Part shown: piece by piece, positions 631 through 47,073 of the stretch
Position numbering within the stretch: position 1 is the stretch's first letter
How the letters are laid out: each line of letters starts with the position of its first letter
Notes under the pieces: model-generated
What the model was told of the DNA's origin: nothing
The model's input: only the letters and a program-made list of their open reading frames with translations
Databases searched by the model: none
Translations under genes and position numbers: made by a program
DNA from: a virus
Lineage: Duplodnaviria > Heunggongvirae > Uroviricota > Caudoviricetes
Reading direction: 5' to 3' (one strand)
Length of the DNA stretch: 47,073 nucleotides
IMG/VR virus record: IMGVR_UViG_2534682139_000016
Coordinates: 1 to 47,073 of that record

Positions 631-1845
631 ATGTATATGTCGGTTTTTCATAACTGGCTGCTTGATATCGCAAGCGGGAATTACTTTATCTACATCAAAC
701 GCCTTTCTGCAAACGACACAGGCGCAACAGGTGGCCATCAGGTCGGACTTTATATCCCCTCAAATATCGTTGAAAAGCTTTTTCCATCTATCAATCATAC
801 TCGCGAACTGAACCCTTCAGTCTTCCTTACTGCGCATGTATCATCCCATGATTGCCCTGATACCCAAGCACGCGCAATTTATTACAACAACCGTTATTTT
901 GGTAAGACCCGAAACGAAAAAAGAATTACGCGCTGGGGGAGAGGAAGTCCATTACAGAACCCTGAAAATACAGGAGCCCTCACAATTCTTGCTTTCAGGT
1001 TAAACGAACAGAACACTGACTGTTCCGAGGTAGATATATGGGTCTGCGTCAATCCCGATGAAGAGGATATCATCGAGTCTGCTATTGGCGAAATCATACC
1101 TGGAACCCTAATTTCCGGCCCTGCCGGACAAATTTTGGGCGGATTGTCTCTTCAGCAAACTCCAGTAAATCATAAATATGTTATTCCTGAAGACTGGAAG
1201 AAGCGTTTTCCTTCTGGAAACGAAATTATTCAATATGCTGCTGGCCATTATGCTAAAAACTCCAAGGATCCAGATGAGCAACTGATTGACCGTCGGCGTG
1301 TCGAGTATGATATTTTTCTACTCGTCGAGGAATTACATGTTATTGATATTATTAAGAAAGGATTCGATTCTGTAGATGAGTTTATTGCATTAGCCAACTC
1401 TGTCAGTAATCGACGTAAATCAAGGGCAGGCAAATCACTTGAACTTCACCTAGAGAAGCTTTTTATCGAGCACGGACTACGGCATTTCTCCACTCAGGCA
1501 GTTACTGAAGGTAATAAAAAACCAGATTTCCTGTTTCCTTCAGCAGAGGCATATCATAACGTTGAATTTCCTGTAGAAAACTTACGTATGCTGGCAGTAA
1601 AGACCACCTGCAAAGATCGCTGGCGTCAGATACTGAATGAAGCAGATAAAATCCATCAGGTACATTTATTTACACTGCAAGAAGGTGTTTCTTCAGCACA
1701 ATACCGAGAAATGAAAGATGCGGGTGTCAGACTCGTTGTACCATCAACTTTACATAAAAAATACCCAGAAGCAGTTAGAGAAGAATTAATAACGCTCGGA
1801 GCATTCATTACTGAGCTGATAGAGCTTTACGCTGAACTATCATAG
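631..1845 (+). CDS. ecoRIIR: Type IIE restriction endonuclease, EcoRII-like (CCWGG)
   Basis: 404-aa ORF; N-terminus MSVFHNWLL...YIKRLSANDTGATGGHQVGLYIPS and overall sequence match my recollection of R.EcoRII; AGGGA Shine-Dalgarno 7 nt upstream; convergent with a C5-methyltransferase gene. Confidence 0.85.
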   Translation: MYMSVFHNWLLDIASGNYFIYIKRLSANDTGATGGHQVGLYIPSNIVEKLFPSINHTRELNPSVFLTAHVSSHDCPDTQARAIYYNNRYFGKTRNEKRITRWGRGSPLQNPENTGALTILAFRLNEQNTDCSEVDIWVCVNPDEEDIIESAIGEIIPGTLISGPAGQILGGLSLQQTPVNHKYVIPEDWKKRFPSGNEIIQYAAGHYAKNSKDPDEQLIDRRRVEYDIFLLVEELHVIDIIKKGFDSVDEFIALANSVSNRRKSRAGKSLELHLEKLFIEHGLRHFSTQAVTEGNKKPDFLFPSAEAYHNVEFPVENLRMLAVKTTCKDRWRQILNEADKIHQVHLFTLQEGVSSAQYREMKDAGVRLVVPSTLHKKYPEAVREELITLGAFITELIELYAELS

Positions 1846-1848
1846 GCT

Positions 1849-1871
1849 GACTCCCGGCTTAAAAGGCCGGG
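1849..1871. terminator. Hairpin between convergent R and M genes (CTCCCGGC-N7-GCCGGGAG), possible bidirectional terminator
   Basis: 8-bp perfect GC-rich inverted repeat in the 34-bp gap between the two convergent stop codons; no clear U-tract. Confidence 0.4.
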
Positions 1872-1879
1872 AGATGTTC

Positions 1880-3313
1880 TCAAGGCTGCCCAGTCTTACC
1901 AGCATCAGCAGAAACAGCTTTGAGGATATAGGGTTCCAGAAGTCTGGCAACAGCTTCAAATACTGGCACCACAACTGAGTTACCGAACTGCCGATATGAC
2001 TGAGTATCTGAAACCGGAATACGGAATGGTTTCCCTCCAGGTTTTTCAAATCCCATAAGGCGTGCGCACTCTCGGGGAGTCAGCCTGCGTGGTCGACGAG
2101 CCTGATTACTCTCATTCATAAAGTCAGCCTCTCCCGTTGCCATATCCCAACCACGATCAATAAGAATTTCTGATCCGTCTTTGTGATATCTGGCAGAAAG
2201 TGTGCGTGCAATGCTTTCCTTATTCTCAGGATTGACCAACCCAAAGCCAAAACCATTCCCCTTGGCTGCATGCTTTTTGGCGTAGTTATAAAGGTACTCC
2301 CATAGTTTTGGCGTAAGTATATATTTACTGTCGACTACAGGCTCCAGCAATTCACCAAATGATGGGCGGTGTTCCGGATAAAAACGACTGATATCACGCA
2401 AGGTAAACCCCTTGTGAATATTCAGATCTCGTCTAAATCCGACCAGAACAATGCGTTCACGATGCTGAGGCAAAAAATGCTTCCCATCGATAATCTTTGG
2501 ATCGTTTTTTCCCATTTCTGCAGCATCGGCAACTTCGTAGCCCAGCTCGTCAAGGGTCTCCATAATGACTTTGAAAGTTTTACCCTTATCATGGCTCTTC
2601 AGATTTTTGACATTTTCCAGCACAAAAATTGCCGGTTTTTTTGCTCGTATAATACGTGCCACGTCAAAAAAAAGTGTTCCTTGTGCTTCACATTCAAAAC
2701 CATGCGCACGACCAAGTGAGTTTTTCTTACTAACACCAGCAAGGCTAAATGGCTGGCACGGGAACCCCGCAAGAAGCACATCATGATCCGGCACATGCTC
2801 ATCAATATATGCATAAGCATCCGTTTCCAATACATCGGTTTTATCACTCAGCGTGACTTCCCGAATATCGAGATTGAATTTATGCACCTGTTCATCGTTA
2901 AACCAGTTGGCCTTGTATGTACGCACAGCATCTTTATTCCATTCACTGGTAAAAACACACTGGCCTCCAATGGCCTCAAAACCTTTCCGTATCCCTCCAA
3001 TTCCAGCAAATAAGTCAATGAAGCGGAAAGCATATTCCGGATGGTTTGCAGGTGGTTCTGGTAGCATCTTACGCAGAAGAGACTCTTCTACTGAAGTCAA
3101 CGATTTTGGTAAACACTTGCCATTAATCCAGCGGTTAATGGTTTCACGGCTCCACTCATTTTTTCCGACTTTTCTCAGTAATTCAGCCACATACTTCTGA
3201 TCATAGATTTCCAGCACTTTCTCGATAAGCTTTTTATCATTTTCCTGTCGCAGCTTTTCTTCCGCCTCGGCTTCCTTCAGCAGATGCTGTGCCAACACTT
3301 CAAATTCAGACAT
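1880..3313 (-). CDS. ecoRIIM: DNA (cytosine-5) methyltransferase, M.EcoRII/Dcm-like
   Basis: Motifs [10 protein letters not shown] (AdoMet binding), GFPCQPFS (catalytic PC), ENVKNL; start placed at MSEFEVL (3313) because GGAGG lies 4 nt upstream, giving 477 aa; ORF track extends to 3355. Confidence 0.9.
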
Positions 3314-3674
3314 AATTCCTCCAAGGGGTCTAATGGGTGAAACTTTATCACTCATTCAACCCAGAAGGAAATGTTTTATCTGGATATTTAAACAGTGACT
3401 ACAACGTAATCTAGCACTGGTGATGCTTTGTTAGGCATAGAGAATCATTCTATATACGACTAATGACAGAAAAACAGCAGACAAGTAGTTTGTTCATAAA
3501 TTAACGCATACTATGTGTCTACGGTTTTCGAGACCGGTCCAATCATCAAACGAAACATAAAATTAGCTCACATTATGAGGAAAAGTATCTTTTTTGTACT
3601 ATGTAAATTCAAAGGCTTAGCCTCATTTCTCCGATGGTTTTCTCAACACTACTGGTTGTGAGCCCTTGCAATGA

Positions 3675-4493
<819 letters not shown>

Positions 4494-4550
4494 GTCTTTA
4501 AGTGATAAGCATAAACCGCAGCACGATCTTGCATACGACGTGCTACGGTT

Positions 4551-5105
4551 TCATTTATCTCCGACCGAAAACTTCTTATACAGTGTCGATATACCAACAT
4601 CATAGATGATCGCCACCTTCTGGCGAGGAACGCCTGATGCAATTAATCGCCCAGCCTGCGCCCATTGTTCTGGTGTAAGTTTGGGACGACGTCCACCAAT
4701 TCGTCCCTGTGCGCGAGCAGCTTCCAGTCCAGCTTTTGTTCGTTCAACAATCAGTTCTCGTTCCATTTCAGCCAGGGCACCCATCACATGAAAGAAAAAA
4801 CGCCCCATCGGTGTGCTGGTATCAATAGCATCCGTCAGGCTGCGAAAATTAACGCCACGTTCGCGCAACTCCTCAACCAGAATGACCAGATGCCGCATAC
4901 TACGCCCCAGCCGATCCAGCTTCCAGACAACCAGAGTGTCACCTTCCGATAATGTCCTGAGCAGTTTTTTCAGTCCCGGCCTTTCAGACTTTGTACCGCT
5001 TATCTTGTCTTCAAAAATCAGCTCGCATCCTGCACAGTTCAGCGCATTACGCTGTAGATCTGTGTTCTGGTCATTTGTTGACACACGTACATAGCCAATA
5101 AGCAT
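4551..5105 (-). CDS. pin: Serine recombinase, DNA invertase of the Pin/Gin/Hin/Cin family
   Basis: MLIGYVRVSTNDQNTDLQ... catalytic Ser motif; near-identical from memory to e14 Pin; adjacent to tail-fibre genes flanked by inverted crossover sites. Confidence 0.9.
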   Translation of the reverse strand: MLIGYVRVSTNDQNTDLQRNALNCAGCELIFEDKISGTKSERPGLKKLLRTLSEGDTLVVWKLDRLGRSMRHLVILVEELRERGVNFRSLTDAIDTSTPMGRFFFHVMGALAEMERELIVERTKAGLEAARAQGRIGGRRPKLTPEQWAQAGRLIASGVPRQKVAIIYDVGISTLYKKFSVGDK

Positions 5106-27019: not shown

Positions 27020-28195
27020 ATGGATATAACTTGTTTAGAATGTGGCAATGTTCTTGACGACCCAACTGTAGCTTGCGATAAATGCGGTGCCACGCCTCAT
27101 GTTGTAGTGCTGGGCAAACAATCGTACTTTCCTATTGGTGCTGTAACAGCAAATCTTGAAAAAAATGATTCAAGAGCATTTGATTATCGATTAGGTGAAG
27201 TTTGGGATCTAAAAAATGAAGTCACATCTGAATTCATAACCAGAATTGAGAAAAAATTTAGCCGAAAAAACAAATTTCATAACTTCCTAGACTCAGATCA
27301 CAACCCTTCATCCATTCCTACGATCCTAAAAAAATACATTAATAAAAATAATGAATTCATTGATTTATCTAGAGCTATAATAGAGAAGCTTAAACATAAT
27401 GCTAATAACGAATCGAGAGTTGCCCAACTTCAGGGGGGGAGCGTTGTTTTCATCCACTATAAGTCTACCGAACCAGAGGATTTGGGGAAACTTCTAATCG
27501 TAATGGTTGATAAACAAAGCGCCTATGACTTTGATTCGGATAAGTTGACCCCAACAAGATTAAATCCAATTAATACCGATGCCTTACGGCAGGCTGCGAT
27601 GTTCGATTTAACTTTATTCGAAGCCAGTTATCCAGAAAACAAGGGTGACTCATATGTACATTTCTTGCAAGGTAAATCTAAAAGCGATTTTTTCAAAGAC
27701 TCATTAGGTTGCCGACATGATTCGGACAATAAAAGAAGCATTCAGCAATTATTCAGTGCTATAGATATTTTTGCTAGTAAAAACTCACTCGGTCGTGTAC
27801 TGCGTGATACTATTGACAATGAAGTTAAATCCTTACTGGAAAAAAAATCAAAAGATAAACACGGAAATAAGTCCGTTAAGATAGAGGATATTTCAAAAAT
27901 AATTGACTCATGCCTGACTGATTCACACAAATGTAAGGGAACGTTTGTCGATTTTGTTAATCTTAATGGTTTCCAGATTGACCCTCAATTTGAACCAACT
28001 CCTAAAGCAGCTGAAAGCGCGCTTACAATTGAAGTGGCAGATAACGACAATAATTTTAAGTTGAAAATAATGCGTGGAGCTATTGGAGACGAAAAGTCAA
28101 ATAAGCCTGTAATTCTCACTGACAACAAATGCGAAATTGTGATAAAATTGAGTCAGGCAAATTATGATGAACTCAAAAGATATAGAGACAGCTAA
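27020..28195 (+). CDS. Zinc-ribbon protein with NA37/YejK-like nucleic-acid-binding region (cargo gene 1)
   Basis: 391 aa; N-terminal CLECG...CDKCG zinc ribbon; central GGSVVFIHY...LLIVMVD...YVHFLQGKS...DFFKDSLG resembles the nucleoid-associated NA37 family from memory; AT-rich; TATAAT at 27002-27007. Confidence 0.7.
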   Translation: MDITCLECGNVLDDPTVACDKCGATPHVVVLGKQSYFPIGAVTANLEKNDSRAFDYRLGEVWDLKNEVTSEFITRIEKKFSRKNKFHNFLDSDHNPSSIPTILKKYINKNNEFIDLSRAIIEKLKHNANNESRVAQLQGGSVVFIHYKSTEPEDLGKLLIVMVDKQSAYDFDSDKLTPTRLNPINTDALRQAAMFDLTLFEASYPENKGDSYVHFLQGKSKSDFFKDSLGCRHDSDNKRSIQQLFSAIDIFASKNSLGRVLRDTIDNEVKSLLEKKSKDKHGNKSVKIEDISKIIDSCLTDSHKCKGTFVDFVNLNGFQIDPQFEPTPKAAESALTIEVADNDNNFKLKIMRGAIGDEKSNKPVILTDNKCEIVIKLSQANYDELKRYRDS

Positions 28196-28197
28196 TA

Positions 28198-29412
28198 ATG
28201 ACAATTGCTGATGACTTATCAAGATTAGCGCAGATTATTAACGGAGCCTCAAGCAGAGTTGAGGGCTACTACACTGTCATAAGTCTTGAAGAAAGCATTG
28301 TTATTGTAAATAGTTCTGAAATAATTAGACTGTTACAATCTATAGGTTATAAAAAGGCAACAACCTGCATCGAAAATAATGAAATTTGGCTAGATCGCCA
28401 AGCTTCATCTTGGGATGACGCTATAATTTATGAGAATGTTGAGTCTTTTTGGTCTAGAGTAAACACCCAAAACGCTCTTCCGAAAAATTATATCATCGGA
28501 ACGCCGTTAATACTCCCTACTTCTAAGAATGAAAGCATCGAAAAAATCCATATTTTCTTTATGTGGAAAGATATCCTTTCATTAATTGCTGATCATCATA
28601 ACAGTGACTGCTCTGTCTTATTTTTCACCAATGAAGACAAAAGTTATACAGTCGAACTCACGCATTTTTTACAATATAGCGAGATTAATCGCTTATCGAA
28701 CTCGTCTCTTAAATATGAAATTATAAAGGAGCTTCTCGACACAATAAAAATCAATGATTTACACAAAAGCGAGCGCAAGCTCGTTATACGCTCAGCCATA
28801 AACGAAGTATTTAAAGCAAATGGTACGTTCAATTTCTTTGACTTGCTTAACTCTACTGAACTCGTCAGGAAAAAATATGATGAACTATATGAGATTTACA
28901 CAAAGAGGTTTTCTGTAAATAAAATTCTTAACGAACTCGATGAGAAAAATCTTGAGTTCACGAGTAAAATTAACGAATTCATATCATCTAATCAGACAAA
29001 AGCATTGACTATTCCCGGTGCATTAATAGCTGCTGGTGGCTTAGTGAAGGCTAATGAAACAACCGAAGCAATATTGATTATCGCAGGACTTTGGATGATA
29101 AAAAAAGTCAATTACATTTCTATTGAGATATTCAATGAAACATTCGACAACTTACGTTCTCGAGTGGAGTCCGCTTTCGATAAGTATTTAAAGTTTGAAG
29201 AAAATAAAGAAATCAAAGATAATGCAGATAGTATTAAGAGTAGCATTACAGGTTTGATTGATAAAGCTAAAAAAAGGATGAGAACTGTTAAATATCTCGC
29301 ATCAGCCATGTTTTATGGAGGCCTTATTTACGTTGGATATAAACAGTTCCCAGTCTTTTTTGAAAAATCGGCAGTAAATCTATTTTATTTTTTATGCCAT
29401 ACTATAAGCTAA
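28198..29412 (+). CDS. Hypothetical protein with C-terminal hydrophobic helices (cargo gene 2)
   Basis: 404 aa; start 2 nt after gene 1 stop; hydrophobic stretches ALTIPGALIAAGGLV and YLASAMFYGGLIYVGY. Confidence 0.7.
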   Translation: MTIADDLSRLAQIINGASSRVEGYYTVISLEESIVIVNSSEIIRLLQSIGYKKATTCIENNEIWLDRQASSWDDAIIYENVESFWSRVNTQNALPKNYIIGTPLILPTSKNESIEKIHIFFMWKDILSLIADHHNSDCSVLFFTNEDKSYTVELTHFLQYSEINRLSNSSLKYEIIKELLDTIKINDLHKSERKLVIRSAINEVFKANGTFNFFDLLNSTELVRKKYDELYEIYTKRFSVNKILNELDEKNLEFTSKINEFISSNQTKALTIPGALIAAGGLVKANETTEAILIIAGLWMIKKVNYISIEIFNETFDNLRSRVESAFDKYLKFEENKEIKDNADSIKSSITGLIDKAKKRMRTVKYLASAMFYGGLIYVGYKQFPVFFEKSAVNLFYFLCHTIS

Positions 29413-33436: not shown

Positions 33437-34374
33437 CCCCTGAATCCTGCCGGGATCTGGCTGTAGTCCACGTTGTCGTAACTGGATTTGAAATATGGGT
33501 CTTCGCGTTTTTCTGTGTATGTGCTGATGGACGGCGATAAGCGCAGGGAAAGCTCATCCCATTTTTCCCGCAGCTTCGACGGGCTGAGCACGTTACGGCA
33601 CCAGAACGGATCGCGACTGACGCGGCTGTACATCTCGCAGATTTGTTTATGATTACGACCATCCTGCACACACATCAGGCGAATTTCGTTTGCCCAGGCT
33701 GTCCAGTTCGGTTCTTTGGGACGAACCACCTCGCCGTCACATTCGGCGGCCTGCTCGTACAGGGCGATGATTTTTTTCCAGAGCCACTGTGCGCAGGTCA
33801 AATCATCCTGCGTTCCCCACTGGCGCTTTTTAGGGCTGAATACAACCGCATCAGGATGGCGAGTTAAAAAATCCTGTTCATCCGTCTGCGTGTCCGGTTG
33901 CGAAGCGTCCGGACGAGAAGGTTTTTTATCTGACGGATCATGTTTTGATTTTACTGACGGATCCCCGCCAGATTCTGACGGGTGAAAACCCGCTTTTTTG
34001 CCAGATTTCGACGCATCAAATTTTGACGGGTCAGATTTTGATGCGTCAGATTTTGACGGGTCAGAATCTGACAGTTGAGAAAATGCCGCTGCCTGAAGCT
34101 TCGCAACGTTAAGCTGATAAACATTCGACGCATTGCGGTTACCCTGGCGACGCGCCTTACGCGTTAACCAGCCTTCTGCTTCCAGCCGTGCGATAGCCGT
34201 CCTGACGGTACTCATCCCCGCGCCAATCTGACGGGCAATAGTTTCAATTGATGGCCAGCACACACCTTCGTCATTACTGAAATCAGCCAGGCGGGCCATA
34301 ATTGCCACGCTGGATAATTTCATGCCTGATGCAGCGCAACCATCCCATACATAGCCGGTTAATTTAGTGCTCAT
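33433..34374 (-). CDS. Replication initiation protein (lambda O-like N-terminal winged helix) with internal repeat region
   Basis: ...SIETIARQIGAGMSTVRTAIARLEAEGWL...; central repeated peptide DPSKSDASKSDPSKFDASKS encoded by DNA iterons. Confidence 0.65.
   Translation of the reverse strand: MSTKLTGYVWDGCAASGMKLSSVAIMARLADFSNDEGVCWPSIETIARQIGAGMSTVRTAIARLEAEGWLTRKARRQGNRNASNVYQLNVAKLQAAAFSQLSDSDPSKSDASKSDPSKFDASKSGKKAGFHPSESGGDPSVKSKHDPSDKKPSRPDASQPDTQTDEQDFLTRHPDAVVFSPKKRQWGTQDDLTCAQWLWKKIIALYEQAAECDGEVVRPKEPNWTAWANEIRLMCVQDGRNHKQICEMYSRVSRDPFWCRNVLSPSKLREKWDELSLRLSPSISTYTEKREDPYFKSSYDNVDYSQIPAGFRG
33970..34080. repeat. Tandem iteron-like direct repeats (candidate replication origin inside the O-like gene)
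   Basis: Repeated units of the form (T)CAGATTTTGA(C/T)G(G/C)GT... four or more times across 33970-34080. Confidence 0.55.
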
Positions 34375-39843: not shown

Positions 39844-40062
39844 GTGGAGAAACATATGCTGAACCTCGATTGTGTTCCTATCTCAACTTATTGCAAAGAA
39901 ACTGGCGAAACTCCTGAAGCAATAAACAAACGTGTACAGCGCGGTGTTTGGCGTGAAGGTGTTCAGGTTTTAAAGGTTGAAGGCGTTAAGGAGAGGTGGA
40001 TTGATCTTAGTGAGGTTGCAAAATGGGCCAGACAAAACTGCTCAAACTACCGCGCGGCGTAA
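39844..40062 (+). CDS. Excisionase-like protein
   Basis: 72 aa immediately upstream of and overlapping int. Confidence 0.55.
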   Translation: MEKHMLNLDCVPISTYCKETGETPEAINKRVQRGVWREGVQVLKVEGVKERWIDLSEVAKWARQNCSNYRAA

Positions 40063-41198
40063 CAATCAGGAAACACCGCCAGGGCGAAACGATCAATATA
40101 ACTTTCACCTACAAAGGAGTTAGATGTCGTGAGCCGCTTTCCAATCTGGAAGTAACACCAAAGAACATTAAATACGCCGAGCGTACACTCGGCGAAATCC
40201 ATAATAAGATCGAAAGGGGAACATTCATTTATGCAGAATATTTTCCCCGTTCTGCTCGTTTGAAAATTTTTGGTAATGCTGCTGCAGGCAAAACGGTAAA
40301 GATGTACCTGGACGAATATCTTGAAATCTGCGAAACAAGAAAACTTTCACCCTCTACGATTGGTGGCTATAAAAAATGCCGTAGTGCGTTAGCCTCACTT
40401 CACATTTGCCCTGCAAGTGAATTAACACCAGCAACCCTGAAAGCGTGGATTCAAAGCCAGAAAACAACCTTAAAAACCATTCGCAACCAGTTATCTTTCC
40501 TGCGGTCAGCACTTGATGAAGCCGTGACCGATGGGGTACTTCAAATTAACCCCGTATCGTTAGTAACAGCTTCGCGCTACCAAAGTGATAAGTCAGAAGC
40601 AGAAAGCAGCTATGTGGTTGATCCGCTATCACCAGCAGAAGTTGATGCATTACTAGCAGCAGCCGGAAACAAACAATGGGAAAATCTGTTCCGGTTCGCT
40701 ATACATACAGGCCTGCGTAGTTCTGAACTATGTGCCCTTCGATGGCGTGATATCGACTTTGTTGGAAAAACAGCACATGTCCAGAGCGCAAGTGTTGTTG
40801 GTGTTATCAAAGGGACCAAAACAAAAGCCGGTACTCGTAAAGTTGAACTGACAGAAGAGGCAATGTTGGCGCTGATAAATCAGAAGCCATTTACGTTCAT
40901 GAAAGATGCTACGGTCTTTGAAGATCCAAAGACCAATAAGCCTTGGGCAAGTGCTGATGCAATCAGGAAAAAAGCATGGGTGCCAACATTGCGAAAAGCA
41001 GGTATTCGCTACAGAAACCCATATCAGACCAGGCACACTTATGCTACTAAGTACATTAGCCAAGGAGCTAATCTCTTCTGGCTAGCAGGGCAGATGGGGC
41101 ATAAGGGGCCCGAAATGTTGTTTCGTCATTATGGGCGTTACTTGAGTGATTATGACAACCACAGCTCAACAACGCTCACAAGTAATTGCAAAAAGTAG
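40023..41198 (+). CDS. Tyrosine-type phage integrase
   Basis: 391 aa; C-terminal catalytic region with ...RHTYAT...; HxxR/Y-region GQMGHKGPEMLFRHYGRY. Confidence 0.85.
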   Translation: MGQTKLLKLPRGVTIRKHRQGETINITFTYKGVRCREPLSNLEVTPKNIKYAERTLGEIHNKIERGTFIYAEYFPRSARLKIFGNAAAGKTVKMYLDEYLEICETRKLSPSTIGGYKKCRSALASLHICPASELTPATLKAWIQSQKTTLKTIRNQLSFLRSALDEAVTDGVLQINPVSLVTASRYQSDKSEAESSYVVDPLSPAEVDALLAAAGNKQWENLFRFAIHTGLRSSELCALRWRDIDFVGKTAHVQSASVVGVIKGTKTKAGTRKVELTEEAMLALINQKPFTFMKDATVFEDPKTNKPWASADAIRKKAWVPTLRKAGIRYRNPYQTRHTYATKYISQGANLFWLAGQMGHKGPEMLFRHYGRYLSDYDNHSSTTLTSNCKK

Positions 41199-41448
41199 CC
41201 TTGAGCAAGGTAAAGCATGTTATTCAAAGAAGCCTATTTCGTTCAAAACGAGAGGTCCTCCACAAATCCACGCTTGAATAGGTATTCTTTACAATTATGA
41301 GCATACCCCTTATAGATTTATTCCATTGAAAAATGCCATCCCCCTGATAAAACAACAGTATTATTGTTTCAAAAAAAATGTTATAAGTAAATTCACTTAC
41401 ATGTAACATTTAAATTTTTGTTTAAGAAGTATAAATTAGAGGGATAAA

Positions 41449-42300
41449 ATGACTACACCAGTAATAAGTTTCATAAATATGAAAGGTGGGGTTGGTAAAA
41501 CAACTTTATGCGTCGGCATTGCTGAATATCTTGCAAACTTCATGGATAAAAAGGTATTAATTATCGATATTGACCCACAATTTAACGCTACACAGTCAAT
41601 ACTTAGTAAATATGATCGAGTGAAAGAGTATATAGCTGATCACTTAGAAAATACAAAAACCATCAGACGAATATTCGAGACAAAATCAAGCTTAACGGGT
41701 AAAGTTCAGCAGGTCACTCCTGATGAAATTATCATCAAGATGTCAGAGCACTTAGATATGATTTTTGGTGATATTAATACAATATTTGATATTGAACAAC
41801 CTGCGGCAAGATTACATAAGCTAAAACGCTTTATAGAAGAACATAAGCTTCGAGATATATATGACTTCATTTTGATCGATAGCCCACCAACCATTTCATT
41901 ATTTACTGATGCAGCTCTCGTTGCTTCAGATTATTATATTGTGCCAGTTAAAATTGACCACTACTCAATTTTAGGTGCGACAAGTCTTTTAAGCGTAATA
42001 GAAAACATTCAAGATAATTATGACCATAAAAACATTCAAAACCTTGGTTTTATTTATACTAATACCCTAGAAAATCTATCAAAAAAGACAAAAAAGCTAA
42101 AGACAGACTTTGAAAGTACTGAACCTTTTAATGAACTATACTTTTTTGATAACCAGTTGAAGTTTGTACAGGATTTGATGGTGGGTGGTAGAGGTAATAT
42201 ATCATCAAGTTATAAATCATCCAGAAAATATATCAAAGCGATTTGTGAAGAGTTTTTAAGTCGGATCCAAGAAGTGCAAACGGGGGGGGAAGATGAATAA
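41449..42300 (+). CDS. ParA/MinD-superfamily ATPase (cargo gene A)
   Basis: Deviant Walker A MKGGVGKTT at residues 11-19; Walker B-like LIDSPP; AT-rich; GAGGG RBS. Confidence 0.8.
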   Translation: MTTPVISFINMKGGVGKTTLCVGIAEYLANFMDKKVLIIDIDPQFNATQSILSKYDRVKEYIADHLENTKTIRRIFETKSSLTGKVQQVTPDEIIIKMSEHLDMIFGDINTIFDIEQPAARLHKLKRFIEEHKLRDIYDFILIDSPPTISLFTDAALVASDYYIVPVKIDHYSILGATSLLSVIENIQDNYDHKNIQNLGFIYTNTLENLSKKTKKLKTDFESTEPFNELYFFDNQLKFVQDLMVGGRGNISSSYKSSRKYIKAICEEFLSRIQEVQTGGEDE

Positions 42301-42706
42301 AAATAGTAACAACCTCGAATTATTACAGACATTGGTTTATAAGAAGCCCTCGTCAAAAGAAGCGTTTATTGGTTTGATAACAATAGCAATCTATTCTAGG
42401 GAAATTTTTGTTAAAAATGAAGATGCAGCAGAATTCGTAAAAAATGTATTTGGATTAAGTTTCTTAGACTACGTCATCAAGTCAAGAACTTTATTATGCG
42501 CTAGACTTACCCGTAATCTTGTAAATATGAGCGAGAGAGACATTAAAGAATGCATATATAAAGCATCAGAGTATTTTAAAACTGACAAATTTATTATTGG
42601 ATATAATGAAAACTCACTTACTTTTAAAAAAAGTAACGTCAAACGTAATGCAAATCGAGATGTAGGTACGTGGATTAATGCTCTTTTGAAGAAGGATAGA
42701 AAATAA
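42293..42706 (+). CDS. Hypothetical protein (cargo gene B)
   Basis: 137 aa; start overlaps the ParA-like gene by 8 nt. Confidence 0.6.
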   Translation: MNKNSNNLELLQTLVYKKPSSKEAFIGLITIAIYSREIFVKNEDAAEFVKNVFGLSFLDYVIKSRTLLCARLTRNLVNMSERDIKECIYKASEYFKTDKFIIGYNENSLTFKKSNVKRNANRDVGTWINALLKKDRK

Positions 42707-43371
42707 TGCTTCAAAGAGACCCACATGGATTTAGAAAAGACGTGAAAGAATTTATCACAATGATAAAATCATTTCAGGTCGATATTCGCACCGAAAACAA
42801 TCTTACATCGGCTTATAAACATGTACTTTTTCTGGAGTTTATCCATAACTCACATCCAGAAATAAGTCACAAAACCTTTATAAAAAGTATTATTTATGAT
42901 GTTTTAAGTTCAATTACAGCGATACTTCATAAACGAGAGCGATATCTTCATCTTAATTTTCGCTCAATGATTGAACATCTTGCACGTATATCCTTACAAA
43001 AAGTTGATAACGGGGGGGATTTCGATATTACAATTAGAACTCTTGATTTCGAGAATCTTAAATCTACCAACACTGATGAAAACTGGGCGTACATGCATTC
43101 ACAGTATAAACAAGCATGTGGCTGGTTACACTCATCATCTAAAGTTAAATTAAATATCACAGCATCATTTCCAGATTTATTAAAGTCTGATTCAAAAAGT
43201 AATGCAGCTAAACTGTCAACCCATTTGCAAAAGATGACTACCGAAATGTTAAAGATTTTTTTTAACTACTATGTTGATGAGATTCAAACTTCTTTTTACC
43301 GCACACGGGGAGAAATGAGGTATGTGCTTGGCAACCATAACTTCGAATATTTTTTAAGCAAGAATCCATAA
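42706..43371 (+). CDS. Hypothetical protein with possible HEPN-like Rx4H motif (cargo gene C)
   Basis: 221 aa; TAATG overlap with gene B; motif RSMIEH. Confidence 0.6.
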   Translation: MLQRDPHGFRKDVKEFITMIKSFQVDIRTENNLTSAYKHVLFLEFIHNSHPEISHKTFIKSIIYDVLSSITAILHKRERYLHLNFRSMIEHLARISLQKVDNGGDFDITIRTLDFENLKSTNTDENWAYMHSQYKQACGWLHSSSKVKLNITASFPDLLKSDSKSNAAKLSTHLQKMTTEMLKIFFNYYVDEIQTSFYRTRGEMRYVLGNHNFEYFLSKNP

Positions 43372-43461
43372 ATATATATTTCCTTAAAAAGGATACGTGA
43401 AGTACACGAAGCATGCGAGAAATAAAATAAAACAATAAAAATCAATAAATTAAAAACAAAT

Positions 43462-43492
43462 GGACGCTGGTTCAACTCCCGCCAGCTCCACC
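43462..43492 (+). repeat. Direct repeat of ssrA 3' end (att site)
   Basis: GGACGCTGGTTCAACTCCCGCCAGCTCCACCA matches 372-402 with one mismatch. Confidence 0.85.
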
Positions 43493-43658
43493 ACTTTTTA
43501 GTTGTTTGAAGTTCAATGAAGTCTACTAAGCCCACACAGCACAAGCTCTGCGGGCTTTTTTACGTCTATTGTCGTCCAGTGAGAATTGCTGAGAACTACG
43601 AGTTATGGCACCCTGAATGGGACCCACTAAGAAGGGTCCAAAAACCGAGGGTCCCAAA

Positions 43659-44888
43659 ATGGCAAAAATCGCTAAGAAGCTCACTGACACTGAAATCAAA
43701 AGCACCAAGCCAGCCGATAAAGAAATCAACTTGTTTGACAGTGATGGTCTGATTCTACGAATCGCTCCTTTGGCGAAAGGAGGCAAGAAAAATTGGTATT
43801 TCAGGTATGCAGTACCAGTGAGCAAGAAAAGAACCAAAATGAGCCTTGGGACATATCCTCACCTTACCCTTGCAAGAGCCAGAGCCTTACGTGATGAATA
43901 TCTCTCCTTTCTGGCAAATGGTGTTGATCCCCAAATCCATAACAACGATAAGGCGAAGGCATTAAAGAGTGCTACTGAGCACACTCTCCAAGCCGTAGCG
44001 CGGAAATGGTTAGATGAGAAGGTAAAGACATCAGGTATCTCACAAGACCATGCAGCAGACATCTGGCGCAGCTTAGAGAGAAATGTCTTTCCCGGTCTGG
44101 GTAATGTCCCTATCAATGAGATCCGACCTAAGCTCTTAAAACAACACCTTGATCCTATTGAGCAACGAGGCGTATTGGAAACTCTACGCCGTATCATTTC
44201 ACGTCTGAATGAAATCTTCCGGTGGGCAGCTACTGAAGAACTTATTGAGTTCAACCCGGCTGACAACCTTGGTCAAAGATTCAGTAAACCAAAAAAGCAA
44301 AATATGCCTGCCCTTCCCCCAAGCGAATTGCCAAGGTTTATGGAATCTTTGACGAATGCGTCAATCCGGTTGGAAACACGTATGCTAATTGAATGGCAAT
44401 TGTTGACATGGGTTCGTCCGGGTGAAGCCGTTCGCGCAAGGTGGTCTGATATTGATACAACCAACAGCATTTGGAACATTCCTGCTGATTTCATGAAAAT
44501 GAAAAAGCTTCACAAAGTTCCTTTGAGTAAAGAAGCTTTGCGCATCCTTGAATTAATGAAATCAATAAGTGGGCATAGAGAATGGGTTTTCCCCAGCATA
44601 AAAGCGCCTCTTAATCATATGCATGAACAAACAGCCAACGCAGCTATCATCCGAATGGGGTTCGGAGGCGAGCTTGTAGCTCACGGTATGCGTTCTATTG
44701 CACGAACAGCGGCAGAGGAGTCTGGTAAATTCAGAGCTGAAGTTCTTGAGGCAGCGCTTGCCCACTCGAAAAAAGATGAAATTATCGCAGCATACAATCG
44801 TGCAGAATATCTGATAGAGCGACAGAGTTTGATGCAATGGTGGAGTGATTACGTTCAAGCTCAAAGATCAAATGCTCTGGTAGCCTAA
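43659..44888 (+). CDS. P4-type (IntA-like) tyrosine integrase
   Basis: MAKIAKKLTDTEIKSTKP... and ...DIWRSLER...MQWWSDY... parallel CP4-57 IntA from memory; begins ~166 bp after the ssrA fragment. Confidence 0.85.
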   Translation: MAKIAKKLTDTEIKSTKPADKEINLFDSDGLILRIAPLAKGGKKNWYFRYAVPVSKKRTKMSLGTYPHLTLARARALRDEYLSFLANGVDPQIHNNDKAKALKSATEHTLQAVARKWLDEKVKTSGISQDHAADIWRSLERNVFPGLGNVPINEIRPKLLKQHLDPIEQRGVLETLRRIISRLNEIFRWAATEELIEFNPADNLGQRFSKPKKQNMPALPPSELPRFMESLTNASIRLETRMLIEWQLLTWVRPGEAVRARWSDIDTTNSIWNIPADFMKMKKLHKVPLSKEALRILELMKSISGHREWVFPSIKAPLNHMHEQTANAAIIRMGFGGELVAHGMRSIARTAAEESGKFRAEVLEAALAHSKKDEIIAAYNRAEYLIERQSLMQWWSDYVQAQRSNALVA

Positions 44889-45859: not shown

Positions 45860-46186
45860 ATGACTAAAAATACTCGTTTTTCCCCCGAAGTCCGTCAGCG
45901 GGCGATTCGTATGGTTCTGGAAAGTCAGGATGAATATGACTCACAGTGGGCGGCAATTTGTTCCATTGCCCCAAAGATTGGCTGTACGCCGGAGACTCTG
46001 CGTGTCTGGGTTCGCCAGCATGAGCGGGATACCGGGAGTGGTGATGGTGGACTCACCACCGCTGAACGTCAGCGTCTGAAAGAGCTGGAACGTGAAAATC
46101 GTGAACTGCGCCGCAGTAACGATATCCTTCGCCAGGCTTCCGCTTATTTTGCGAAGGCGGAGTTCGACCGCCTCTGGAAAAAATAA
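45860..46186 (+). CDS. IS3-family transposase OrfA (HTH)
   Basis: [21 protein letters not shown]... leucine-zipper C-terminus. Confidence 0.9.
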
Positions 46187-47073
46187 TGCCACTGCTGGAT
46201 AAGCTGCGTGAGCAGTACGGGGTCGGACCGGTATGCAGCGAACTGCATATTGCCCCGTCAACGTATTACCATTGTCAGCAACAGCGACATCATCCGGATA
46301 AACGCAGTGCCCGTGCGCAGCACGATGACTGGCTGAAGAAAGAGATACAGCGCGTATACGATGAAAATCACCAGGTATACGGTGTGCGTAAAGTCTGGCG
46401 TCAGTTGTTACGGGAAGGTATCAGAGTGGCCAGATGCACTGTGGCACGTCTCATGGCAGTTATGGGACTTGCCGGTGTTCTCCGGGGTAAAAAGGTCCGC
46501 ACTACCGTCAGCCGGAAAGCCGTTGCCGCATGCGACCGCGTAAACCGTCAGTTCGTGGCAGAACGTCCAGACCAGTTGTGGGTGGCTGATTTTACCTGGG
46601 TAAGCACATGGCAGGGCTTCGTTTATGTGGCGTTCATCATTGATGTGTTCGCCGGATACATCGTGGGATGGCAGGTCTCATCATCCATGGAAACAACATT
46701 CGTGCTGGATGCACTGGAGCAGGCGTTGTGGGCCCGTCGGCCGTCCGGCACAATCCATCACAGTGATAAAGGTTCTCAGTATGTATCGCTGGCCTACACG
46801 CAGCGGCTTAAGGAAGCCGGATTACTGGCATCAACAGGGAGTACTGGCGACTCGTATGACAACGCGATGGCTGAGAGCATCAATGGTCTTTACAAAGCGG
46901 AGGTAATACACCGTAAGAGCTGGAAAAACCGGACAGAAGTGGAACAGGCCACACTAACGTGGGTGGACTGGTATAACAATCGACGATTGCTGGAAAGGCT
47001 GGGCCATATTCCTCCGGCAGAAGCAGAAAAAGCTTATTATGCTTCCATCGGAAATAATGATCTGGCAGCCTGA
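46186..47073 (+). CDS. IS3-family transposase OrfB (DDE catalytic domain)
   Basis: -1 frame relative to OrfA with A-run (GGAAAAAATAATG) at the junction; DDE region ...HSDKGSQYVS... Confidence 0.9.
   Translation: MPLLDKLREQYGVGPVCSELHIAPSTYYHCQQQRHHPDKRSARAQHDDWLKKEIQRVYDENHQVYGVRKVWRQLLREGIRVARCTVARLMAVMGLAGVLRGKKVRTTVSRKAVAACDRVNRQFVAERPDQLWVADFTWVSTWQGFVYVAFIIDVFAGYIVGWQVSSSMETTFVLDALEQALWARRPSGTIHHSDKGSQYVSLAYTQRLKEAGLLASTGSTGDSYDNAMAESINGLYKAEVIHRKSWKNRTEVEQATLTWVDWYNNRRLLERLGHIPPAEAEKAYYASIGNNDLAA

Follow-up and report, generated by a model that had tools for sequence, protein, structure and literature searches.

Closest described system and the locus under study

The Gifsy-1 prophage of Salmonella Typhimurium 14028 carries RemAIN, a three-gene system encoded by STM14_3218–3220 (PMC13043305). 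That paper describes RemAIN as an anti-phage system composed of an ATPase (RemA), an immunity protein (RemI) and a HEPN nuclease with anticodon-nuclease activity (RemN); it cites Sargen and Helaine 2024 (Cell Host Microbe 32:2063, via PMC13043305) as the source, and a heat map in the same paper shows protection against infecting Salmonella phages. According to PMC12626290, the remN product cleaves tRNA and thereby prevents ST64B from completing its lytic cycle. RemAIN has been described as a 'prophage competition element' acting on co-resident ST64B. The same locus was mapped in PMC9879122 as STM14_3218 (840 bp, ParA-like), STM14_3219 and STM14_3220 (663 bp), located just downstream of the repressor gene gfoR (STM14_3217). 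Gifsy-1 has no ParB according to that study, in which deletion of the STM14_3218–3220 locus raised Gifsy titres 2–4 fold and abolished RtcR activation in the SOS response. Here we analyse a 47,073-nucleotide (nt) stretch of DNA, the IMG/VR virus record IMGVR_UViG_2534682139_000016 (hereafter the window), in which an original prediction made from the letters alone had pointed to a candidate novel three-gene cassette at 41199–43461, between the integrase and the right attachment site (attR) of a phage. The evidence presented below makes it likely that this cassette is an Escherichia coli representative of RemAIN, a family of systems that prophages carry for defence and for competition with other prophages.

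Relationship of the cassette to RemAIN

The cassette consists of three genes on the plus strand, A (41449–42300, 283 amino acids (aa)), B (42293–42706, 137 aa) and C (42706–43371, 221 aa). The start of B overlaps the stop of A by 8 nt and the start of C overlaps the stop of B by 1 nt, exactly as first described, and the open reading frames (ORFs) are translationally coupled, each of them being preceded by a good and intact Shine-Dalgarno sequence. All three proteins have homologs in a gene trio on a Salmonella contig (L049), with 58% identity for A (6e-120), 32% for B (5e-19) and 42% for C (4.5e-62). The trio on this contig encodes a ParA protein of 279 aa (840 bp) and proteins of 128 aa and 220 aa (663 bp). 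The P, O, cII-like and ydaS genes lie on one strand, followed by a CI-type repressor gene and the trio, with recE further on, and this layout and the gene lengths match the published arrangement of STM14_3217 (gfoR)–3220 in Gifsy-1 (PMC9879122). The same trio layout was found in the IMG/VR loci L023–L029, of which L024, compared directly, is 99% identical. Because all three proteins are homologous to this trio and its layout matches the published remAIN locus, we assign the cassette to the RemAIN family with fairly high confidence.

Several points weigh against this assignment. The Salmonella contig is equated with STM14_3218–3220 by species, context and gene lengths rather than by alignment to the 14028 record. 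Moreover, B and C are only 32% and 42% identical to the Salmonella proteins, a strong divergence that implies that the trigger and the tRNA target specificity may differ. The tRNA cleavage, the immunity role and the anti-phage phenotype were shown for the Salmonella system and would extend to the E. coli cassette by homology. Finally, in a Pantoea contig from Logan (L007, 778–1628) gene A is frameshifted by the loss of one T in a T5 run, with B and C intact; this may be a sequencing error, but if real it would mean that A is not required to keep C harmless.

A screen with PADLOC-DB v2.0.0 (2023), of the kind that the original prediction had proposed, gave no match for B or C, and the match of A is limited to a 63-residue P-loop stretch of PDC-M28B. 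The empty result is explained by the age of this release, which has no RemAIN model since it predates the naming of the system. The suggestion that the genes represent defence-type cargo is supported, the cassette being autonomous prophage cargo homologous to remAIN. The accompanying view that it is novel and corresponds to no nameable defence system does not hold, as the homologous Gifsy-1 trio is published. The find is therefore sound but not new, RemAIN having been described in Salmonella in 2024.

Proteins encoded by the cassette

Judged by its motifs and profile matches, the RemA-like product of gene A is a deviant Walker A ATPase of the ParA/Soj/MinD type. It matches the Pfam families AAA_31 (1.9e-38; 132.6 bits against a cut-off of 27) and CbiA (2.3e-16; 60.3 bits against a cut-off of 25.4) as well as phrog_164, and its nearest solved relatives are Soj proteins (approximately 1e-18). 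These matches bear out the original reading of A as a ParA/MinD-type ATPase on the basis of MKGGVGKTT. This deviant Walker A motif, together with the DIDPQ (DxDPQ) and IDSPP (DSPPT) motifs, is invariant in all trios, and A evolves much slower than B or C. Conceivably, the ParA-type ATPase works as a sensor on DNA or the nucleoid and thereby licenses the nuclease.

The RemI-like product of gene B is a small helical protein that matches phrog_6264 (2.3e-52) and has no match in Pfam, NCBIfam, PADLOC or the Protein Data Bank (PDB). Profile searches with B gave no ParB, ribbon-helix-helix (RHH) or helix-turn-helix (HTH) signal. Its AlphaFold2 (AF2) model, with a predicted local distance difference test score (pLDDT) of 68, comprises a helical core at residues 20–95, a disordered linker and a conserved C-terminal helix containing W127. 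B evolves fast; it aligns with the unannotated middle ORF of the Streptococcus phage Javan1 (hhalign 98.6%, E 1e-15). This B homolog of 113 aa at positions 4399–4740 of the Javan1 record (L042, MK448665.1), located between the ParA gene and a 226-aa gene, is missing from the gene annotation of the record.

The product of gene C is a RemN-like, putative HEPN-type nuclease that matches phrog_7540 (1.3e-108) and has no match in Pfam, NCBIfam or PADLOC. None of the Pfam HEPN families matches any of 15 members of the C family at E-values up to 10, and the sole hint of a curated HEPN family is a weak DUF4145 match (E 0.18) in the Clostridium tetani homolog. Sequence-profile searches of the PDB (queries A1, A2 and A5) found nothing meaningful. 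The AF2 model of C is all-alpha (pLDDT 84, predicted template modelling score 0.84). A structure search had been suggested for this protein in the original prediction; with Foldseek, the all-helical model has no match in the PDB below E 0.08, and the fold call alone is therefore moderate evidence.

An exhaustive profile search delineated a C family of 126 clusters at 50% identity, nearly all of them 215–240 aa long, and residue conservation was counted over 107 sequences, comprising 106 full-length representatives and C of the window. Three residues, R86, E90 and H142, are found in 107/107 sequences, followed by Y134 (106/107), S87 (105/107), arginine or lysine at position 94 (104/107) and C138 (93/107). 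Residue 91 is asparagine in 80/107 sequences and histidine in 10/107. It is this residue that provides the histidine of RSMIEH, in which a HEPN-like Rx4H motif had been proposed. The motif does exist at residues 86–91 of C, and R86-x4-H91 also occurs in the enterobacterial branch, but its interpretation is doubtful: with asparagine prevailing at position 91 and H142 invariant, Rx4H is unlikely to be what characterises catalysis in this family.

For the HEPN superfamily, an Ex3[KR] motif has been defined, and the catalytic histidine sits at the end of a helix before a loop (PMC3710099). Both features have counterparts in C, where E90-x3-R94 fits the Ex3[KR] motif and H142, in the AF2 model, ends a helix just ahead of a loop, in the place of the HEPN catalytic histidines. 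Thus, the active site of C may be formed by R86, E90, R94 and H142 rather than by the canonical Rx4H with H91. The early hint that C is an RNase effector is supported, the protein being a probable HEPN-type nuclease.

Distribution of RemAIN-like trios

The window is a segment of an E. coli chromosome, and its cassette is 100% identical in O103:H2-type Shiga toxin-producing E. coli (STEC) genomes. Copies of the cassette with 99.7–100% identity and three intact ORFs were found in 16 E. coli genomes from varied hosts and countries; 15 of these copies are integrated at ssrA. The 44.6-kb NZ_CP148393.1 (L001), deposited as a circular 'plasmid', is a whole lambdoid phage circularised exactly at the phage attachment site (attP), and it holds the sole cassette copy of its genome assembly. 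A second E. coli variant of the trio (A, B and C 57%, 32% and 37% identical, respectively) is intact in 52 genomes and sits in a decayed prophage whose neighbouring integrase, SRAP, umuC and dinI genes are pseudogenes. In one genome with this second variant an IS1 element splits C and leaves A and B intact.

Among the IMG/VR loci that encode a relative of C, down to 35% identity, 27 out of 27 have the A-B-C order and tight coupling. The trios follow integrases of several types, or are located directly downstream of a CI-type repressor gene and co-oriented with it. The conservation of the trio at other integrase junctions, which the original prediction had proposed as a check, is thus observed. 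Other trios occupy further, unrelated slots: one is embedded in the tail genes of a siphoprophage from Proteus, another is the last feature of a P2-like prophage from Pantoea, and a third, on a metagenomic contig, has umuC, PLD and HigBA genes beside it.

Outside the Enterobacterales, the nearest ParA relatives are 34–42% identical to A, and each of them heads the same architecture. The order in Javan1 is repressor, A, unannotated B, C and integrase, and Javan1 C aligns with the E. coli C protein (hhalign 97.2%, E 4.5e-11). In the Lactobacillus phage LF1, gp31-30-29 are followed by the integrase gene; the hhalign comparison of the C family with LF1 gp29 is not significant, so this trio is assigned by ParA similarity, architecture and a B-like SRT motif only. 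Relatives of the trio are also present in the Lactococcus phage PLg-TB25, between ispA and uppS on the Fusobacterium vincentii chromosome, where they form a chromosomal islet, and beside a serine recombinase gene in a complete temperate phage genome of C. tetani deposited as a circular 'plasmid' (NZ_AP026810.1, L047). Megablast and tblastn searches against 50,697 phage isolates gave no match to the cassette or to C, and a scan of IMG/VR with Javan1 C found no relatives. That RemAIN-like trios constitute a pan-bacterial accessory system of temperate-phage cargo slots, and not a Salmonella curiosity, is a tentative extrapolation that we regard as rather doubtful.

Proposed action and alternative explanations

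Under the RemAIN assignment, the cassette would be carried as AT-rich cargo next to int and attP and expressed from its own promoter in the lysogen. C would be a HEPN-type tRNA anticodon nuclease, B its immunity or neutralising partner, and A a ParA/Soj-type ATPase that forms one functional unit with both. A competitor phage or prophage entering lytic development would unleash the nuclease, the resulting tRNA cleavage would stall translation, and the lytic cycle of the competitor would be blocked. We infer the roles of A, B and C from their homology with Gifsy-1 remAIN, and the expression, activity, trigger and tRNA targets in this prophage are likewise presumed. The sequence analysis itself establishes the homology of the three proteins, their conserved order and coupling, the motifs of A and C, and a restriction of the trio to prophages.

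A ParA-type ATPase gene followed by a small gene also calls to mind a type Ib partition or episome-maintenance system, in which A would be the motor, B a novel centromere-binding adaptor and C an accessory protein, the whole keeping the excised phage circle in dividing cells. This possibility was weighed because two trio-bearing temperate phages, NZ_CP148393.1 from E. coli and NZ_AP026810.1 from C. tetani, were deposited as circular 'plasmids', and it agrees with the bona fide ParA/Soj-type nature of A as well as with the small size of B, comparable to that of type Ib ParBs, and with its conserved, basic helix at the C-terminus. However, B gives none of the ParB, RHH or HTH signals expected of such an adaptor, and no centromere-like arrays (at least three repeats; seeds of 6–7 nt) flank the trio in the window or in any of seven further lineages. 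The original prediction had remarked on the missing ParB partner and centromere repeats, and had held that finding both would overturn its reading; neither was found. The genomic distribution points the same way: C occurs in one of 72,556 plasmid records, namely the excised phage NZ_CP148393.1 itself, all but one of the 16 E. coli copies are in prophages integrated at ssrA, other trios sit among Proteus tail genes or Fusobacterium housekeeping genes, and 52 genomes retain an intact trio within a prophage remnant that is decayed and immobile. Partition was rejected on this distribution and context, and we regard it as the least credible of the explanations considered. The earlier statement that the architecture is not that of a partition system is supported, given that the trio has no ParB-type partner, no repeats and no plasmid residence beyond the phage circle.

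An explanation closer to the RemAIN reading is that the cassette is mainly a brake on prophage induction or a toxin-antitoxin-like addiction module that offers little protection against external lytic phages. The effects of deleting the Salmonella homolog on Gifsy titres and on RtcR activation in the SOS response (PMC9879122) are in line with it, as is the label 'prophage competition element' given to RemAIN for its action on co-resident ST64B. So are two features of the second E. coli variant, namely the IS1 insertion that disrupts C and spares A and B in one genome, which is the pattern expected of a dispensable toxin, and the persistence of the trio in a decayed prophage. Nevertheless, RemAIN is also reported to protect against infecting Salmonella phages (PMC13043305), and the roles of prophage brake and phage defence are not exclusive; we consider this alternative improbable as the main function. 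A still less probable scenario, to which we attach very little weight, is that the cassette is a diverged or inactive relic, with ORFs that are intact in a system no longer functional in this E. coli lineage. The frameshifted genes that the neighbouring prophage carries in related strains would fit such decay, but across 16 genomes of diverse host and country of origin the cassette shows 99.7–100% identity and has no broken ORF, every family-invariant residue is kept, and the translational coupling and Shine-Dalgarno sequences are intact.

Candidate regulatory elements

The integrase gene and gene A are separated by 250 nt of intergenic DNA. A CTG-N9-CAG element (CTGATAAAACAACAG) at 41344–41358 in this region may be an operator of the cassette or part of its promoter. 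Of 10 lineage representatives, 6 have such an element in the 200 nt preceding gene A, against 0.13 expected from shuffled sequences; the equivalent sites are in L003, L006, L013, L020 and L041. The Salmonella-type cassettes located downstream of a repressor gene lack CTG-N9-CAG. A common operator of this kind, as judged from sequence, may provide the enterobacterial cassettes with a shared regulatory input.

Several trios have SOS-type neighbours, namely umuC, dinI and SRAP genes. The E. coli LexA box is CTG-N10-CAG. The CTG-N9-CAG element resembles this box and was considered as an SOS box, but was rejected, its spacing being one base short (no LexA model was run).

An extended -10-like sequence, TGTTATAAG, was recognised by eye on the plus strand at 41379–41387, approximately 21 nt downstream of the CTG-N9-CAG element, and TGnTAnAAn-like elements occur at an equal distance in other lineages. 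It is the probable promoter of the cassette, although a consensus promoter scan omitted it because of the absence of a good -35 element.

The original prediction had also suggested that a perfect 10-bp palindrome at 41396–41405 may be an operator. The palindrome, TTACATGTAA, does exist, one base further on (41397–41406), but an operator role is not supported. The 250-nt intergenic region is expected to contain 0.46 perfect 10-bp palindromes, at least one was present in 36% of shuffles, and the sequence is already mutated to CCAACATATAA and CCAACATGTAA in L017 and L018, in which the C protein is 94–95% identical. This palindrome was therefore rejected as an operator and is most likely due to chance.

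Downstream of gene C, a terminator scan detected a hairpin with a T run on the plus strand at 43543–43557, just beyond attR, which we take to be the displaced ssrA terminator. No other terminator-like site follows gene C, and in the lysogen the transcript of the cassette is therefore likely to stop at this hairpin.

In Rfam, the interval 43339–43561, which extends from the end of gene C through attR into the terminator region of ssrA, weakly matches IsrM, a small RNA (sRNA) of a Salmonella island (58 bits, the gathering score being 376; E 1e-14). Sequence shared at the 3' flank of ssrA is a more probable source of this match than a genuine sRNA gene.

Prophage and cargo context

The window contains the transfer-messenger RNA (tmRNA) gene ssrA at 40–402, whose last 32 nt (371–402) form the core of the left attachment site (attL). 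The core of attR at 43462–43493 is a direct repeat of the tmRNA 3' end, identical to attL at 31 of 32 positions, and because of this recurrence the interval 403–43461 is considered a prophage inserted in ssrA. The prophage tyrosine integrase is encoded on the plus strand at 40023–41198 (Pfam Arm-DNA-bind_2 1e-23 and Phage_integrase 4e-16; its RefSeq copies are named site-specific integrase). The cassette therefore lies between integrase and attR, as was first noted, and the initial description of strongly AT-rich DNA is also correct, the fraction of G and C (GC) being 0.319 at 41199–43461 vs 0.501 in the rest of the prophage and 0.449 in int. The tail genes are Mu-like in the window and lambda-like in NZ_CP148393.1, and in related strains the neighbouring prophage contains frameshifted genes.

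Two known defence systems are located at the attL end of the prophage: an EcoRII-type restriction-modification (R-M) system at 631–3355, consisting of an EcoRII-N/C restriction enzyme and a C5 cytosine methyltransferase, and PD-T4-3 at 3720–4493, which encodes a GIY-YIG protein (PADLOC 4.7e-140). When the phage map is closed into a circle, both come to lie next to the cassette across attP, and the three together form one defence cargo island.

A second AT-rich insert (34–36% GC) of two genes was observed at 27020–29412, between the Q antiterminator and lysis genes. The products of this candidate cargo pair are a nucleoid-associated protein resembling NA37/NdpA (391 aa) and a protein of 404 aa that has no match in Pfam or PADLOC. 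The stx phages carry stx in this position, between the Q antiterminator and lysis genes. A 28-nt AT-rich sequence (ACAATAAAAATCAAT...) at 43432–43459, just before attR, is 82% identical to 28741–28768, and this resemblance may be due to chance in AT-rich DNA. Repeats with a 15-nt period (CAGATTTTGACGGGT-like) are present at 34002–34076, where the repeat finder reported four overlapping 30-nt copies spaced 15 nt apart, inside a 313-aa gene whose annotation reads helix-turn-helix domain-containing, and they resemble the iterons of a replication origin within an O-type replication gene. A second integrase ORF (43617–44888, 423 aa; the RefSeq counterpart is an 'integrase domain-containing protein') starts 124 nt past attR, and two islands therefore appear to be arranged in tandem at ssrA. 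Next comes an IS3-family element (45860–47073) with overlapping ORFs of 108 and 295 aa that continues past the end of the window, and whose RefSeq counterpart is an IS3 family transposase with a programmed frameshift.

Significance and comparison with known systems

In 68 of 5,426 complete E. coli genomes, O103:H2 STEC among them, RefSeq labels these genes as a 'ParA family protein' and two 'hypothetical proteins'; the assignment gives them names and stops the misreading of the trio as a partition locus. In STEC, a tRNA-cleaving prophage-competition module could affect which co-resident prophages complete induction, and also which phages are usable against such strains. The comparative data may aid work on the RemAIN mechanism, in particular the wide host range, the invariant R86, E90 and H142, the nearly invariant Y134 and the variable H91, as well as the fast evolution of B and the conserved upstream element.

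The cassette and RemAIN of Gifsy-1 share three co-oriented, overlapping genes for a ParA-like ATPase of about 280 aa and proteins of about 130 and 220 aa, carriage by a lambdoid prophage and the same invariant nuclease residues, including RSMIEHxARI. They differ in location, as the cassette occupies the interval from int to attP and has an upstream region of its own, whereas the Gifsy-1 trio is placed directly downstream of gfoR. This slot behind a CI-type repressor gene is the place of rexAB in lambda. The host species and the phage backbone are also different, the latter having Mu-like tail genes in the window and lambda-like ones in NZ_CP148393.1.

The trio resembles type Ib partition systems (ParF/ParG-like) in the succession of a small deviant Walker A ATPase and a small protein encoded by an overlapping gene. 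It differs from them in having no centromere repeats and no RHH or HTH partner, in possessing a conserved third gene for a putative nuclease, and in not residing on plasmids.

Dyads of ParA/Soj and HEPN (MAE_18760 family) genes were predicted to be toxin-antitoxin systems by Anantharaman et al. 2013 (PMC3710099). Like the trio, the dyads couple the gene of a ParA/Soj-type ATPase with one of HEPN type, and control of the RNase by the ATPase was proposed for them. The dyads consist of two genes, whereas the trio has a third one for a separate immunity protein, and the dyad prediction was never tied to prophage defence; it is nonetheless the conceptual forerunner of the RemAIN-type trio.

Single-protein HEPN abortive-infection systems of prophages are represented by HepS of Gifsy-1 (PMC13043305) and Tha of the Staphylococcus aureus phage 80alpha (PMC11087260). 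Similar to what is proposed for C, these are HEPN RNases expressed in the lysogen from accessory slots of the lysogeny/immunity region, which stop competing phages by RNA cleavage. They are triggered by tail proteins, have neither an ATPase nor a co-operonic immunity protein of the RemI type, and show no detectable sequence similarity to C.

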